IMG/VR virus record: IMGVR_UViG_3300028394_000078
Span: 1,549 to 65,548 of that record
DNA from: a virus
Taxonomy: Duplodnaviria > Caudoviricetes
Direction: 5' to 3' (one strand)
Length of the DNA: 64,000 nt
In this document: piece after piece, positions 9,601 through 14,501 of the stretch
Layout of the letters: every line of letters starts with the position of its first letter
Numbering within the stretch: position 1 is the stretch's first letter
The notes under the pieces: generated by a model
Seen by the model: the letters and a program-made list of their open reading frames with translations, nothing else
Database searches by the model: none
What the model was told of the DNA's origin: nothing
Program-made: the position numbers and the translations under genes

Positions 9601-11384
9601 CGATGAAATTCCAGGCTAAGAAGTATATGGAGAATCACGGCGAACTAGGTCGTGGCTTTAGAATGGTAGCAGCAGGTGTTGGCGGCCGTTGGATACAAAA
9701 TATGTACATAGGCAGACTACATAATGAACTTCACGACCTATGCAAATACAACACCCGTAGAACCGTGGAGTTACGTGACTTCTTACGTGGAGAAGAATCC
9801 AACGGTGAAATAGAAATGAAGAGATCATTTGGCAACCTTGCTAATAATCTACCTCCTATATTGGCCAAGTTAGGCGAACAAATCAATGCTCCACAACTGA
9901 CAAGAAATGCTCGTCGTTGGATGCAGAACAAAGCAGAATACGAAAGATACATTATGGATCTTGAAGCAGAAGGCGATGATGAACTAGATGACGAACCAGT
10001 GATCAAGCCACCTAAGAGCAATGTAGTCGGACAACAGAATGCACAGGTTGATCAGATTGTTAATGATATATTAAGTAAGATTCCCAAGCACATAGCCGGT
10101 GAGATACGTAATGCCATTGCTCGTTCTCCAAACAAATTATCAGCATTAAAACAAGAGTTGAATAAGCATCATGTGACCATGTCAGAAGGTGCAACTGCTG
10201 ATATGCGTTCATGGTTTGCAGGTCAAGAACGTAATTTACCATTTAGAAAAAAAACACCCGATATACGCAATTATGATTATCCAAAAGAAATTGATGATAT
10301 TCTTAAAAAGATTAAAAACCGTGAAAGACTACAACCTCAAGAATTTGAGTATCTAACAAAATGGAAGGCTCGCCAGGGCATGGATGAAGAGCAAGATGAT
10401 GTAATGGGTAATATGGCTAAAGACCTAACTGGTCATGGTAGTCCTATTGCCAAGGCAGCAGCACAGAGAGATAAGAAGCGTGAGCAACAAAGTACTCAAA
10501 GTCATGGAAGAGCAGAAGGTCCTAAGTGGAATGTGGCTGAAGAAGAAATAAAAAATAATCATTGGTATGATGCCGGAGTGAAGGATGCTACTCGTGGTGC
10601 TAGACCTAATCCACGCACATATTTGCCAACACTTAAAGACAAGCAGGCTAAACATCCAGAAGAAGTATATTTTTATATGCAAGGGTATAAAAGTGTCAAA
10701 CAAGGTGTGGCGGAAGGCTCAGGCGAAGCAGAAGCATACAAGGCACATCTAATAAAAACAATGCCACAAATGATGAACTTCCTAAGTAAGAAAGTTAAAG
10801 GGTGGACCCCTGGCAAAGAAGAAATGTTAGGTGCTATTGATACTGCCTATATGGTTATGAAACACACCGGTGATGTTAAACAAGCAGGCAAGGCTATGAT
10901 GGATGAGTTGAATACTCTACACAGAATGAGTCAAGGTCAGCAAGGTGTGGCGGAGGCTCGTATGAGTGCTGCTCAACGTTTATGGAATGCTGAACAGAAA
11001 CAACGTGCTAAGAGCGACGCAAGTCTTGCTCGTACTCCAAGTAGTATTCCCAAACCAGAACCCAAGAAGGATGAGAAGATTGCTGAGAAGATGATGCCAG
11101 CAAGTAACTTTGCAGGTAGCAAAAAGAACAAACTTGGACCAGCAGGACAATGGAAGAACACTGGGCCAAAGAAAAACAAACCTGCACAGGCTGGTGACTT
11201 AGTTGGTGGTATGGAAGAAAGTTTGAAGGATACTAACCCTTGCTGGAAAGGCTATCACCCTGTAGGTACTAAGAAAAAAGCGGGCAAGACCGTTCCAAAT
11301 TGTGTGCCAGTAAGTGAGAATGTTGAGAACATTATGGATGCTTTGATTAACAAGATTATTGTTAATGAAGCAACTAATAAATAA
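6675..11384 (+). CDS. 1569-aa modular polyprotein: Pol-beta-like NTase, KxDG ligase-like domain, HIGH-motif nucleotidyltransferase and small Glu-delimited modules
   Basis: GGSS...GDID...QIDF; VKVDG...EGIV...KVT; GHIGH...GMSFTRLR; repeated VAE/MEE/LSE junctions; PCWKGY..VG.K.K.GK.VPNCVP module. Confidence 0.75.
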   Translation: MILNELFRNPKLALSEGGNLELPNPDDPTTPYQADEIDLKVHNRTFMVGLLDKLLHDVNAAFYGQYKKPIWNPALLQSKEFLGGSSLHFFNTAGISDKEFAKHKPKVGDIDTQCNKELEPELREFLTSYNHKPIGDATLLGFTQGNEQLNALFQFQDPPIKIQIDFELGRYAPETDTPDEWYRFSHSSEWNDIQAGIKGVFHKYIYRALTAAHGSIKHQVNVLKTKTNIKPNVDDNDLSFAVASGQGGGLSQKYEPYIHTDPTTGEKMTHQDNVPYKRLIPAPERTYIQQLDKQFYYFFGANPEGNDKELQKSFLGALELINKYIPDQAAKEKVFMSFLNLCFEPGAQMITKGDPQRDQEIKFAAIDNFIKICKLNNLRKTAIDMGKAYIKDFEEVEAFRKANPGEKQPRAAMKKQGLREEAQVKAQFRKGMPHLHDLKPADLLDLLDEIHDGNGNFKLENIPLNVKVDGFGGRFGKNSEGRPFMGTSRTEPRYEPGFVAYHQKKGTTDPEVLGRAELFDQLFEEMMKAVKLVDSKLGPGFLVNKQVTCEVLYLPFATETPEGKLKFVGIHYDKLPSGVKLALVPFRITDATTGDDLPNSNKIVQELTSVGQSGSVMFIDNSLTQNEALDVTALVPPVENIDELKAMLASNKLEARRQVKAALEPVAAALEKAIINDPNIIGKDLLGQDYEGIVINSRLGPIKVTSQEQRDVITAKNAAKVNARTERPRGEAKTAVVAIGSFVGHIGHEQLWDYTTKKAAAVGGDPYLFIGNAQGKDDPIPPPVKVQTWHKLYPEYAKNISTVTQDGGSLLQKIKHELINPLPGKPPRYDNVIIMVGEDQAGLTMPQALMKAVNKFPGYEHVKVTLEPTPRGTGMSFTRLRNILKDPNATEQQQLAVWSQGFDVQKLGADWIKHLMDITRKGMGIQQAPAPVPQPDPAPIAEQRVLNALVEGTSIDSTLRAIINDIGEPITSVYDTMKFQAKKYMENHGELGRGFRMVAAGVGGRWIQNMYIGRLHNELHDLCKYNTRRTVELRDFLRGEESNGEIEMKRSFGNLANNLPPILAKLGEQINAPQLTRNARRWMQNKAEYERYIMDLEAEGDDELDDEPVIKPPKSNVVGQQNAQVDQIVNDILSKIPKHIAGEIRNAIARSPNKLSALKQELNKHHVTMSEGATADMRSWFAGQERNLPFRKKTPDIRNYDYPKEIDDILKKIKNRERLQPQEFEYLTKWKARQGMDEEQDDVMGNMAKDLTGHGSPIAKAAAQRDKKREQQSTQSHGRAEGPKWNVAEEEIKNNHWYDAGVKDATRGARPNPRTYLPTLKDKQAKHPEEVYFYMQGYKSVKQGVAEGSGEAEAYKAHLIKTMPQMMNFLSKKVKGWTPGKEEMLGAIDTAYMVMKHTGDVKQAGKAMMDELNTLHRMSQGQQGVAEARMSAAQRLWNAEQKQRAKSDASLARTPSSIPKPEPKKDEKIAEKMMPASNFAGSKKNKLGPAGQWKNTGPKKNKPAQAGDLVGGMEESLKDTNPCWKGYHPVGTKKKAGKTVPNCVPVSENVENIMDALINKIIVNEATNK
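10701..10720 (+). repeat. GVAE repeat copy 1 (CAAGGTGTGGCGGAAGGCTC)
   Basis: Direct repeat, also at 10941, 12260 and 12865. Confidence 0.9.
10941..10959 (+). repeat. GVAE repeat copy 2 (CAAGGTGTGGCGGAGGCTC)
   Basis: 240 bp after copy 1; one A shorter. Confidence 0.9.
11378..11383 (+). promoter_or_regulatory. late promoter TAAATA
   Basis: 5 nt upstream of ATG 11389. Confidence 0.55.
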
Positions 11385-11388
11385 CACT

Positions 11389-13115: not shown

Positions 13116-13406
13116 ATGAGAGCAAACGAATTTATAATCGAATCTGCTGCTTGGCATCGTAAGGCCGGCAAAAGCAAGTCTGGCGGACTAAATGCCAAAG
13201 GTGTTGCTAGTTATCGTAGAGAGCATCCTGGTAGCAAACTGCAAACAGCGGTTACCACTAAACCCAGCAAATTAAAAGCCGGTAGTAAGGCTGCTAAACG
13301 CCGTAAATCATTCTGTGCTCGTATGAGCGGTGTTGATGGTCCTATGAAAAAGCCCAATGGCAAACCCACACGTAAGGCATTGGCTCTACGCAAATGGAAT
13401 TGCTAA
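13116..13406 (+). CDS. very basic putative internal head protein (MRANEFIIE N-terminus)
   Basis: K/R-rich; RRKSFCARM...ALRKWNC module familiar from T4-like phage hypotheticals. Confidence 0.75.
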   Translation: MRANEFIIESAAWHRKAGKSKSGGLNAKGVASYRREHPGSKLQTAVTTKPSKLKAGSKAAKRRKSFCARMSGVDGPMKKPNGKPTRKALALRKWNC

Positions 13407-14501
13407 ATGCGTATTAACGAATTACTTGAGGCGCTTGCAAGTGATGACGATCTAAAAGCACGATACGGTGATTTTGATCCCGAAGATAAACCTATGCTTC
13501 CAACCACACATGTTGGTGGTGCTCCTGCTCCTACGCTATGGACAGCATATGATGTAATTCGAAATATACTAGGAAGAGATCAAGTAACGGACGACGATGA
13601 AGAATTAGGACCAGGAATGTATTATGTTTATCAAAGCGGTGGGCCTCCTATGTTTAGAGATACAGGTGACGGTGTAGGAAGTATCAATGTACCAAACTTA
13701 GAAAGTACTGCTGCCAGAGATGTAGCACAGGCTGCACACGAAGCATATCATGCGTATGTTCATAGTAAGAGTCAAGGTGGTGTTGTTTATGCCAACGAAA
13801 AAATTATAAACAATCTAGCAGAAAAATGGCTACGAAAACATTTATCCGGGCCTGCATTGCATGTTGGATTGGAACAGATTGTGGGCAGTAGAATAAGCTA
13901 CGGTCCAAATCATATTCCCACGCAAACAGAAAACTTTACCAACTACCAGGGAGTTAGACCACCTAAGAATGTTCCTGGTACGAATCTATTTCCTGGACAA
14001 GACATAGTGGGGCAAAGGGTTTATCATTGTACCAATAGGCTAGAAGCAATTAAGAAAAGTGGAGGACTAAAACCTCGGCGTGACGCCACAGGCGAACGGG
14101 AATATGGTCGGTTGAGCACAGATGAACATCCATTTATTCCTGTGATAGGCATTTGGTTTAGTGTGGGCAAACCAGACTGGCCCGGTAAACATTGTGTGAG
14201 TTTTGTTATAGAACCCACAGATCAAGTGTATGTGGCCTATGCTAACACCAAAGGCTTGAAACCGAATGTTGTATTAAATCCAATAGCATTAGACAGGCTT
14301 ACTGTGGAAGGTCAGCAGGATGTAGCAGAGAATTTTGCCGATGGTCGTAATCCCCAAGACAAGGGTGATGCCAAACGACACGGTGTAAATACCAAAGCAA
14401 GTGTAAGTAGTTTACGTAAGACTGCCAAGCAAGGCGGCCGCAAAGGTCAACTTGCACATTGGCTAGCCAATATGAAAGTTGGAAGGGCTAAAAAGAAATA
14501 A
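13407..14501 (+). CDS. modular protein: HExxH metallopeptidase-like, ART-like and basic C-terminal modules
   Basis: AAHEAYHAY; VYHCT...IKKSGGL...GIWFS; MRINELLE N-terminus; VAE junction. Confidence 0.65.
   Translation: MRINELLEALASDDDLKARYGDFDPEDKPMLPTTHVGGAPAPTLWTAYDVIRNILGRDQVTDDDEELGPGMYYVYQSGGPPMFRDTGDGVGSINVPNLESTAARDVAQAAHEAYHAYVHSKSQGGVVYANEKIINNLAEKWLRKHLSGPALHVGLEQIVGSRISYGPNHIPTQTENFTNYQGVRPPKNVPGTNLFPGQDIVGQRVYHCTNRLEAIKKSGGLKPRRDATGEREYGRLSTDEHPFIPVIGIWFSVGKPDWPGKHCVSFVIEPTDQVYVAYANTKGLKPNVVLNPIALDRLTVEGQQDVAENFADGRNPQDKGDAKRHGVNTKASVSSLRKTAKQGGRKGQLAHWLANMKVGRAKKK

Follow-up and report, generated by a model that had tools for sequence, protein, structure and literature searches.

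The 64,000-nt stretch analysed here (the window) belongs to a 65.5-kb record of a giant T4-related phage from a lake, as yet uncultured, the record representing approximately 19% of the genome. The locus adjoins genes for chaperones and replication rather than for the head; its features are given in Table 1. A GC-rich word, GGTGTGGCGGA(A/G)G, occurred four times in the window, against a mean of 0.09 in shuffled sequences (0 of 100 shuffles contained four or more), and nowhere else in the record. All four copies were + strand and encoded G-V-A-E in the reading frames of the 1569-aa and 434-aa ORFs. This agreed with the preliminary description of the window, which had reported four near-identical copies in two genes, spaced by 240 and 606 bp; of the starting positions it gave, 12260 was right, 10701 and 10941 included the preceding CAA codon, and 12865 was off by one.

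Table 1. Features of the linker locus (window coordinates)
Feature	Position	Strand	Description
Polyprotein ORF, 1569 aa	6675..11384	+	Large N-terminal part, 80-aa cassette, 142-aa C-terminal module; borders at copies 1 and 2
Degenerate in-frame N-V-A-E-E	10530..10544	+	AATGTGGCTGAAGAA
Linker word copy 1	10704..10717	+	GGTGTGGCGGAAGG, encoding G-V-A-E-G after a CAA (Q) codon
240-bp cassette, 80 aa (GSGEAEAYK...QGVAE)	10716..10955	+	Bounded by copies 1 and 2
Linker word copy 2	10944..10957	+	GGTGTGGCGGAGGC, reads G-V-A-E-A; one-base-shorter form retaining GGC in the DNA
Leader MRANEFITE of free-standing gene	11389..11415	+	Ends in I-x-E
Polyprotein ORF, 434 aa	11762..13066	+	Contains copies 3 and 4
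Linker word copy 3	12260..12273	+	GGTGTGGCGGAAGG
Decayed linker	12671..12685	+	GGTTCTGTTAAAGAA, G-S-V-K-E then DDSA; V-x-E end retained
Linker word copy 4	12866..12879	+	GGTGTGGCGGAAGG
Free-standing DUF6321 gene	13116..13406	+	Leader MRANEFIIE
ORF, 364 aa	13407..14501	+	Leader MRINELLE; HEAYH motif
Degenerate in-frame D-V-A-E	14319..14330	+	GATGTAGCAGAG, before module starting NFADG

The codons of the word are rare in this DNA, as had been proposed: in window genes, GTG supplied 8.7% of valine codons and GCG 5.4% of alanine codons. Copy 2 (that is, GGTGTGGCGGAGGCTC versus GGTGTGGCGGAAGGCTC) was as described beforehand, shifted by one base with GGC retained. By BLASTP, the enclosed modules fell into different families and were unrelated, as claimed; tblastn matches to the 434-aa ORF in relatives broke at residues ~161–171 and ~372–376, i.e., at copies 3 and 4. 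The degenerate copies noted near 10530 and 14313 were present as in-frame V-A-E peptides, the former being possibly a decayed linker copy; the further decayed site at 12671–12685 had been missed. Relatives read GVAE/DDSA in its place, while the module beginning NFADG came after S-V-A-E in one ORF of contig L081, among the matches listed.

Five consecutive ORFs in the window begin with VILNELF, MRANEFITE, MTNEF, MRANEFIIE and MRINELLE, so that the locus has N-terminal leaders that are short (~10 residues) and terminate in L/I-x-E. Leader-type ORF starts across 139 related loci numbered 34 on the motif strand and one on the opposite strand. The same modules started either right after GVAE or, as free-standing genes, right after an MRAxEF(I/V)xE leader; the DUF6321 module, for instance, was an internal cassette directly after GVAE in three related loci (L059, L029 and L043). 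Leaders of this type are thus the modules' alternative left boundary. The HExxH motif of the 364-aa ORF came without a Pfam match or atlas lead, and contigs of three runs broke inside this ORF, at 13929. A family scan of the window ORFs left most modules without a known family; many conserved neighbouring genes also had none.

Strand, frame and silent sites of the word

The comparison set comprised 139 non-redundant related contigs (1.31 Mb), in which the 11-base core was found 314 times on the coding strand, 313 of them in frame, and never on the other strand. The word and a DNA polymerase gene were both present in 58 of these 139 loci. In large relatives the word was limited to one locus per genome, with 4–6 copies in contigs of 262–343 kb. 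Two cultured relatives, one of them Atu_ph07, checked at the syntenic locus, had neither the word nor the leaders.

Codon choice was compared with background usage in 28 non-redundant loci that were retrieved independently of the motif, with peptide words lying outside it. These encoded 94 GVAE peptides, which used GGT 89, GTG 78 and GCG 79 times, where background usage was 43%, 21% and 9%; GTG and GCG occurred jointly in 73 of the 94, against an expectation of ~2%. The GVAE codons are therefore not free to vary, except that the glutamate codon (GAA 79, GAG 15) resembled the background. Information content was limited to positions -5 to +14, approximately 18 nt, without dyad symmetry, and the T of GGT was kept in 217/229 copies. 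The one-base-shorter form of copy 2 proved general: after GAG the next two bases were GC in 11/25 copies, but in only 14/140 after GAA (Fisher p = 1.3e-4). Since this form keeps GGC while the residue changes, the constraint appears to act on DNA rather than peptide.

Silent positions of the word also resisted divergence. The Gly/Val/Ala wobble positions were 0.92 identical where four-fold sites of the modules were 0.38 identical (i.e., saturated), and their identity was flat across divergence bins, near 0.9, these values being somewhat inflated because borders were set by four accepted spellings and motif-seeded loci were included. With one pair per family, wobble identity was 198/216 versus 0.60 (p = 6e-25). 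Two controls from the same genes behaved differently: the codons of the MRxNEF leader drifted, and a vertically inherited internal HGRGVAE site used GTT, GCA, GCC or GCT, being canonical in 0/6 cases. At the site orthologous to copy 3, locus L005 has GGTGTAGCAGAA, with both wobble Gs altered and 21 flanking bases identical; from the letters, replacement or counter-selection seems a better reading of this than drift.

Exchange of modules at the word

The related contigs contained 175 polyprotein ORFs with 1–7 sites each, giving 528 segments in 399 module families (median module, 77 aa). Where homologous modules were compared, the neighbour across the site was unrelated in 237/257 cases, and only one flank was shared at 224/244 sites with any partner. 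Cassettes of 50–73 aa were found with DNA 98–100% identical and 45-nt flanks only 22–42% identical; among near-identical cassettes, identity started and stopped 0–3 nt from the word. When related phages are compared, inserted, deleted and replaced segments end in the word.

The 240-bp cassette of the window was polymorphic in natural populations. In k=31 contigs from four lake metagenomes of four other studies, it was either absent (three studies) or placed behind other modules. The cassette-less allele joined 10700 to 10941 within 14 shared letters (X2), with loose ends in X4 and X5, while the cassette itself recurred at ~99% identity behind unlike flanks or other modules (X2, X6). Contig ends at the cassette were located at 10714, 10941, 10701 and 10954. 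Two back-joints (12687 to 10701 and 12678 to 10701) were read as other in-frame arrangements, not circles, and no circle junction was present in the lake-metagenome contigs at the cassette locus. Because the codons are constrained, module order is variable rather than fixed, and breakpoints match the repeat to the base, the earlier proposal of a DNA word that marks module-swap points is supported.

Alternative explanations

The preliminary description went further, likening the locus to an integron. Phage_integrase was found in 0/5 large relatives (G001–G005, which were used for gene-presence checks; two of these are at least 97% complete, and G001 is 99% complete), as was Resolvase, with controls positive in 14/14 and 12/14 genomes, respectively. 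No recombinase family occurred among the scanned window ORFs or 10 of the 25 listed neighbour families (ranks 1, 2, 5, 9, 11, 16, 17, 19, 21 and 22), and the word has neither an inverse copy (0/314) nor dyad symmetry. Around 120 copies there was no fold signal (mean z = -0.87 versus lenient shuffles); pairing probability at the word was 0.63 versus 0.52 in the flanks, as expected of a GC-rich patch. With no integrase or resolvase found, and no circle junction, the integron-like reading is unsupported. The same results speak against the word being the recognition site of a dedicated nuclease or recombinase (integron-like or homing-type), and a nuclease with this target would also cleave the genome of the phage itself. 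We consider such an enzyme unlikely, although the letters are kept more exactly than annealing stability requires (e.g., the T of GGT), the word is found strictly on one strand and at a single locus in each genome, and many conserved neighbours lack a known family. A ribosome pause at domain borders (rare codons, SD-like AGGUG) or a weak G-rich structure, put to secondary use in recombination, would fit the invariable coding strand (314 versus 0) and the rare GTG and GCG codons; 8 nt ahead of the ATG start codon at 13116, AAGGTG probably also serves in ribosome binding, and GG-TGT-GG-C-GG-AA-GG contains four GG runs. However, the folding results do not favour an RNA signal, the fourth GG run is present in just 105/229 copies, pausing at rare codons would leave the fixed GGT, the most frequent glycine codon, unexplained, and base-resolution breakpoints are not predicted, making this explanation quite improbable.

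The word could instead be maintained purely as a peptide linker or cut site, with recent common descent, and with recombination occurring there since it is the only sequence shared. Many cassettes are indeed very recent, as their 98–100% identity indicates, the glutamate wobble and the residue after it vary, and the decayed site at 12671–12685 keeps V-x-E, which shows that constraint on the peptide can be separated from that on the DNA word. Yet wobble identity is ~0.9 in every divergence bin, even with module four-fold sites at 0.38, the leader and the internal HGRGVAE site drift in the same genes, and the GAG-GC form conserves DNA despite a changed residue; we give this account little chance. 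Finally, assemblers might have joined different phages at the shared word and created false mosaics: all loci are metagenome contigs and, with conserved flanks, the shared stretch can be as long as ~21 nt, the smallest k of some assemblers. But the k=31 contigs of four studies show the cassette-less allele and other arrangements, and assembly at this k, with which Logan contigs are reportedly built, makes joining through 14–21 shared letters impossible. Identical arrays also recur across metagenomes (L018/L019, L020–L023, L040/L150), and an artefact is very improbable.

A probable dual-use linker and its relation to known systems

The explanation that we favour, as probable though well short of certain, is that one in-frame linker, the word (A)AGGTGTGGCGGA(A/G)G(GC), does double duty as DNA homology joint and protease cut site. 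It would provide a short GC-rich stretch of homology, unique in the genome and common to hundreds of otherwise unrelated modules. During co-infection by related phages, or pairing of genes within one genome, molecules would be joined inside the word by the ordinary general recombination or replication machinery of the phage; a RecA-family gene was found in 4/5 large relatives. Whole modules would thereby be inserted, lost or exchanged with frame and domain borders preserved, and cassettes with intact flanking words could keep spreading, which, rather than the peptide, would be why silent positions are fixed. For RecA-type recombination, 11–17 identical bases are a short stretch. GVAE could also be spelled with more GC, since the word retains GGT and GAA, and stable annealing therefore fails to explain its exact letters. 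Breakpoints restricted to linkers are also expected if joints form anywhere and only linker joints survive.

The encoded Q-G-V-A-E/G would act as a flexible joint, most likely cut after glutamate by a head protease of the T4 gp21 type. In the T4 literature, gp21 is described as cutting after L/I-X-E and removing 10-residue leaders (PMC9026906). The V-A-E of the word fits this rule except at P3, which is valine where the published rule has L/I. A Peptidase_S77 gene was identified in G002, G003 and G004 (3/5 large relatives), adjoining the Gp23 capsid gene in two; it was not matched in G005 or in the 99% complete G001, nor was Gp23 in the latter. No protease or capsid gene was matched in the source record, a 19% fragment, and TATAAATA was absent upstream of the locus. 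It is plausible, on sequence grounds, that the linker peptide is a head-protease cut site. A cut at the word would correspond to one at the I/V-x-E terminus of the MRAxEFIxE leader carried by free-standing genes, and each module would therefore be released in the head as a small, separate protein. The original suggestion that the modules are injected effectors is an inference only, as is their loading into the capsid and delivery.

A bolder formulation, which we consider less likely than not, is that the word is an evolved recombination address, coding DNA selected for exchangeability as such, through which a clade of giant lake phages could recombine, in frame and between genes as well as phages, a common and plug-compatible stock of hundreds of small head-cargo proteins. 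An unrecognised enzyme may act on it, and a single element of 15–17 bases would be DNA joint and proteolytic release site together, a protein-level counterpart of integrons and PeSLs.

No paper describing the linker was found in the literature. The locus offers a base-resolution case, from natural populations, of a virus shuffling protein parts without breaking frames or domains, with a short coding word that stays the same in hundreds of modules having no other relation, and a testable case of selection on silent sites for recombination. Should the head protease indeed cut the peptide, one word would both assemble the polyprotein and take it apart, and these phages would have in common an open set of interchangeable, small, packaged proteins, in T4 the kind that counters host defences. 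The word is also a simple sequence handle by which hundreds of small phage proteins of unknown nature could be mined, and it suggests a possible rule by which to design modular cargo for engineered capsids of the T4 type.

Integrons depend on the tyrosine recombinase IntI together with attC sites that fold, and what they move are whole promoterless genes. The likeness lies in arrays of swappable units bounded by a recurring site; IntI-type recombinase, attC-type folding inverted repeats and whole-gene movement were not found for the lake-phage word. Polymorphic toxin loci (CdiA, Rhs) have a conserved peptide motif at the border of C-terminal domains exchanged by homologous recombination, but with one border per protein, long upstream homology and toxin-immunity logic, and with neither arrays nor a protease-site reading.

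PeSL cassettes (promoter-early stem-loops) are described from hyperplastic regions of T4-type genomes, where variable genes lie among blocks of conserved core genes (PMC2839356, PMC4122927). There too, variable genes that are not essential lie between copies of a short repeated DNA element, and recombination between these copies leads to their insertion, deletion and replacement; repeated conserved sequence flanking variable modules, as in motif-mediated modular shuffling, was likewise present here. As described, however, PeSLs are intergenic and folded, comprising promoter and terminator, and mini-circles have been shown for them, whereas 313/314 copies of the word are coding and in frame, without a stem-loop, and shuffle protein parts, and the back-joints read as in-frame arrangements rather than circles. 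The lake-phage ORFs have the multi-module architecture of polyvalent proteins, which in phages and conjugative elements combine 2–15 unrelated domains, including conflict-type domains and often a zincin peptidase (Iyer et al. 2017; PMC5512222). These are likewise predicted to be packaged and delivered, and their authors raise cassette-like recombinational variability and peptidase processing; the available text ascribes processing to zincin-type domains, describes no shared DNA joint, and contains neither 'linker' nor 'shuffling' (PMC5512222).

The internal proteins of T4 (IPI–III, Alt) are reported to carry a capsid targeting sequence and to be processed by gp21 (PMC9026906, PMC3012670, PMC5694885). 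They resemble the modules as diverse, fast-changing small proteins having in common only a ~10-residue L/I-x-E leader, with a gp21-type protease in relatives of the lake phage. As described, T4 cargo is encoded by separate genes, whereas lake-phage modules are often concatenated into polyproteins with an internal cut-type linker. The tail-fibre adhesin genes gp37/gp38 of T-even phages, also of T4 type, recombine at conserved motifs (Tetart et al. 1996, 1998, as cited in PMC3157838), which are similarly short, in frame and placed between variable segments. In that account the motifs, which are glycine-rich, belong to the structure of a single protein fold, and the variable segments form loops within one domain, whereas the lake-phage word is 11–17 nt with fixed silent sites, has the look of a cut site, and joins dozens of modules that are unrelated and fold independently.

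Spelling and distribution of the linker word

The short in-frame DNA motif reading G-V-A-E (the 'word', or linker) had no copy in the whole record beyond the four tabulated, all of which were in frame, in either the 1569-aa or the 434-aa ORF. The preliminary description had considered the GTG-GCG spelling unexpected, and this was borne out, since GTG made up 8.7% of valine codons and GCG 5.4% of alanine codons in the genes of the window. Given this rarity, four independent arrivals at the same spelling through chance are out of the question.

Coordinates of the linker word and other features within the window
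Feature	Position	Strand	Remarks
Word copies 1-4, GGTGTGGCGGA(A/G)G	10704, 10944, 12260, 12866	+	0.09 expected
ORF, 1569 aa	6675-11384
240-bp cassette	10716-10955	+	Between copies 1 and 2
Polymorphic 224-nt stretch	10188-10413		In the 1569-aa ORF
Identical 20-nt gene starts, ATGAGAGCAAACGAATTTAT	11389-11408; 13116-13135		Two unrelated genes
ORF, 434 aa	11762-13066
Twin-arginine signal-like stretch (SRRGFLKG...)	12380-12450		Residues 207-232 of the 434-aa ORF, ~40 residues past copy 3; Pfam TAT_signal E = 2.9e-4, 21.1 bits, below the 22.7 cut-off
Decayed linker (GSVKE)	12671-12685		Word lost, V-K-E end retained
ORF	13407-14501		MRINELLE leader and HEAYH (HExxH) motif; no Pfam or PHROG family; atlas look-up of 13407-14498, best score 0.81, no family
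Site of contig breaks or switches	13929		In ORF 13407-14501; canonical word absent
Fe/Mn superoxide dismutase	14501-15043		Starts MYNFIKYVVE-G: leader-like, V-x-E end
MoxR-type ATPase, then DUF2201_N/DUF2201 protein	28773-31205		ATPase is PHROG 1297; second protein metallopeptidase-like plus VWA-like
TATAAATA	31197-31204		14 nt upstream of ATG at 31218
ORF, 4922 aa	38087-52855	-	Amid tail-fibre-like genes

In a single-sequence AlphaFold2 model of ORF 11762-13063, copy 3 (residues 167-170) lay entirely inside a low-confidence stretch and copy 4 (369-372) at the junction of two others (320-369 and 371-404), residue 370 being above the cut-off; with a mean pLDDT of 51, this model was too poor to count as evidence. 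The sole confidently modelled domain (residues 240-302, pLDDT 70-81) followed the twin-arginine signal-like stretch in mid-protein. In relatives, the Tat-signal module stood directly behind GVAE (GVAEDMSRR).

Related loci were fetched with the 434-aa protein via peptide words outside the motif (37 loci), and an exact 17-mer scan yielded at least 120 stretches; after removal of overlapping loci there were 139, comprising 1.31 Mb. An 11-base core occurred in 314 copies, every one of them on the same strand, and 313 copies lay in frame within an ORF. The comparison of synonymous sites with codon usage upheld a constrained spelling: among 94 GVAE peptides from loci gathered without the motif, glycine was GGT in 89 (background 43%), valine GTG in 78 (21%) and alanine GCG in 79 (9%), with GTG and GCG occurring jointly in 73. 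The glutamate codon was background-like (79 GAA, 15 GAG), and information content was nil beyond positions -5 to +14. Two controls behaved differently from the word; the codons of M-R-x-N-E-F/L, the leader at the N-terminus of these genes, drifted, while HGRGVAE inside a conserved module was spelled with GTT plus GCA, GCC or GCT, or with GTG plus GCA, in six of six cases. The wobble positions of the word were ~92% identical at any divergence of the adjoining module, including pairs with only 38% identity at four-fold sites, in a comparison where borders were set by four accepted spellings and motif-seeded loci were included. At one locus (L005), both wobble Gs were altered and the flanks were identical.

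The reading of copy 2 as a sign of constraint on the DNA itself was strengthened, because the same form recurs elsewhere: GC came next in 11 of the 25 copies with GAG and in 14 of the 140 with GAA (p = 1.3e-4). GGCGGA-GGC is therefore kept in the DNA despite the change from glycine to alanine, which points to constraint on the DNA rather than the peptide. Elsewhere in the window, two unrelated genes shared an identical start, ATGAGAGCAAACGAATTTAT; its identity within one genome, with codons drifting across loci, may reflect local conversion.

Exchange of modules at the word

When 175 polyprotein ORFs were cut at the word, they produced 528 segments in 399 families, with internal segments having a median length of 77 aa (range 34-440). 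Where a module was shared by two loci, its neighbour across the site was unrelated in 237 of 257 comparisons. Among 244 sites with a partner elsewhere, 224 had one flank in common only, 20 were mixed and none was purely syntenic; a further 90 sites were without any partner. Several cassettes were near-identical in DNA between loci while their 45-nt flanks were at chance level (22-42%); examples were module family F8 in loci L129 and L025 (100% identity over 201 nt), F13 in L065 and L018 (99%), F25 in L018 and L139 (98%) and F27 in L029 and L047 (98%). With cassettes aligned side by side, identity started and stopped 0-3 bases from the word. Modules are therefore swapped exactly at the word, and the gain and loss of modules with breakpoints at the repeat, as anticipated in the preliminary description, was found. 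Among non-seed copies, mixed sites had 9 canonical and 9 variant spellings and junction-only sites 102 and 35; with zero sites in the 'syntenic only' class, this enrichment of variants at vertically inherited sites is suggestive only. One 166-aa module (GFLNEASSDE...) occurred twice in one contig (L037 and L038), in two polyprotein genes and each time directly behind the word, which indicates duplication of a cassette within a genome.

The same dynamic was evident at the window's own locus, where the region 8000-15000 was compared with contigs of four sequencing runs from four studies (X2, X4, X5 and X6, all lake metagenomes). A contig of X2 joined 10700 to 10941, skipping 240 bases, with 14 letters common to both sides; one of X5 passed through copy 1 and then the tail of copy 2; and one of X4 reached copy 2 out of sequence preceding copy 1. 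Jointly, these contigs document an allele lacking the cassette in three of the studies. At ~99% identity, the 240-bp cassette occurred behind dissimilar left flanks in X4 and X5, and in X4 a stop codon came after its G-V-A-E-G. In X2 and X6 the Tat-signal module from the adjacent gene stood immediately in front of it, joined in frame via ...E-Q-G-V-A-E. None of the junctions in these runs read as a circle; the back-joints in X2 and X6 are alternative arrangements.

These mosaics might be thought artefacts of assembly. The contigs carrying the rearranged alleles were built with k=31, so that a repeat of 14-21 nt would be unable to mis-join them, and identical arrays were found again in contigs of different metagenomes; artefact is therefore very unlikely. 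Two further polymorphisms were observed away from the canonical word. The 224-nt stretch of the 1569-aa ORF was swapped for the same 20 letters in X4, X5 and X6, a net change that was in frame, and contigs of X2, X4 and X5 broke or switched at the site within ORF 13407-14501.

Joining of modules and candidate cleavage of the peptide

The five large relatives (contigs of 262-343 kb) had 4-6 copies each, in one or a few stretches, against 0-1 for a reversed-pattern control. Copies formed one tight cluster in G005, and were distributed over ~18 kb in G001 and 32 kb in G004; G003 had one copy 28 kb distant on the opposite strand. The closest copy was ~4 kb from the polymerase gene in G002, G004 and G005. 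Conserved neighbours across the loci included the polymerase (58 loci), a ferritin/Dps-like protein (48 of 139 loci), superoxide dismutase and unknowns. The genome-wide count asked for in the preliminary description thus gave a confined motif, with four copies in the record and 4-6 per large relative, and a genome-wide signal (Chi-like site, promoter or modification site) was rejected on these few, confined copies. A G-quadruplex was likewise dismissed, a fourth GG run being present in just 105 of 229 copies. A candidate internal translation start had an ATG behind some of the copies only.

The proposal of an integron-like array did not survive. The word had no dyad and no inverse copy in the 139 loci and no RNA fold in the 120 copies folded; tyrosine and serine recombinase families, the integron type among them, were not found in G000-G004, although positive controls were detected. 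The linker system is not an integron. A dedicated enzyme acting on the word is possible, as is a role at the level of mRNA; regarding the latter, RNA structure was rejected after the 120 copies were folded with 75-nt flanks (mean z = -0.87, no conserved partner). A RecA-family recombinase was present in four of five large relatives. With RecA present and a dyad, fold and recombinase family lacking in these searches, the simplest mechanism would be that the short, unique, GC-rich identity of the word steers the usual promiscuous recombination of T4-type phages, or template switching. Exchange of adhesin segments in or near conserved motifs is known from T4-type phages (PMC3157838), as is gene shuffling between copies of the repeated PeSL element (PMC2839356). 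Annealing strength alone does not account for the exact letters of the word, because both GGT and GAA have synonymous codons richer in GC.

The encoded peptide is a candidate cut site. T4 gp21 cuts after L/I-X-E and takes off 10-residue capsid-targeting leaders, and the internal proteins bearing such leaders are diverse and fast-changing (PMC9026906, PMC3012670). MRANEFITE-type leaders stood at the starts of five consecutive ORFs of the window. The same modules followed ...Q-G-V-A-E in one phage, and in another they were genes of their own behind MRAxEF(I/V)xE, with up to 91% identity; modules with both border types were DUF6321, the EWSxKYKSSINC module and the NMDHSKD module. Thus, the two border types share a hydrophobic-x-Glu end, and the mature start that each exposes is the same; the decayed linker kept such an end after losing the word. 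In G003, two L-L-E-G were present at the start of the capsid protein and L-V-A-E-G in the scaffold-position protein. These borders fit putative release by the head protease; head genes were not found in the window's record (19% complete), and the protease search drew a blank in one relative that is near-complete. Oxidative-stress proteins, that is, the superoxide dismutase and, outside the window, the ferritin/Dps-like protein, may be part of the same cargo set.

The virus, its relatives and known systems

The window makes up most of its IMG/VR virus record, which is 65.5 kb long and 19% complete according to CheckV. Genes of the window include those for DnaJ, a ClpB-type ATPase, peptide deformylase, Fe/Mn superoxide dismutase, a family-B DNA polymerase, a QueE-like enzyme, thymidylate synthase and tail-fibre-like proteins. 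Its polymerase was 59-66% identical to those of the five large contigs, in two of which a T4 Gp23-type capsid gene adjoined a T4 gp21-type protease. The stretch was contained in 24 runs from 16 studies (freshwater, lake, river and aquatic metagenomes), one of which is possibly its own source; runs with small word shares were left out of the evidence. From this gene content, polymerase kinship and habitat, the locus belongs to an uncultured, T4-related jumbo phage from fresh water. The octamer TATAAATA, the T4 late-promoter consensus, occurred once in the window against 15.4 expected from shuffles, and this depletion suggests that it is reserved as a signal. The DUF2201_N/DUF2201 protein is labelled 'HNH endonuclease' in PHROGs, the two libraries being in disagreement.

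The closest cultured phages by PolB were Sinorhizobium phage Phosso (51.5%) and Agrobacterium phage Atu_ph07 (44.9%). A degenerate word pattern had 0 and 1 matches in these, respectively (controls, 0 and 4), and the leader was absent from their syntenic genes, so that both phages lack word and leader; they are therefore unusable as a model for the linker. A tblastn search of 50,697 phage records with the 434-aa ORF returned zero matches, and the DUF6321 part was the only match by blastn of 10000-14600. No published description of the linker was found, including in the literature on polyvalent proteins, internal proteins and phage polyproteins.

The linker system works like the motif-mediated modular shuffling of T4-type phages and like the leader-tagged internal proteins of T4. 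It differs from both in that the element is coding, in frame and fixed at silent sites, and in that one word is common to hundreds of unrelated modules; unlike either counterpart, the word probably also serves as a cut site.
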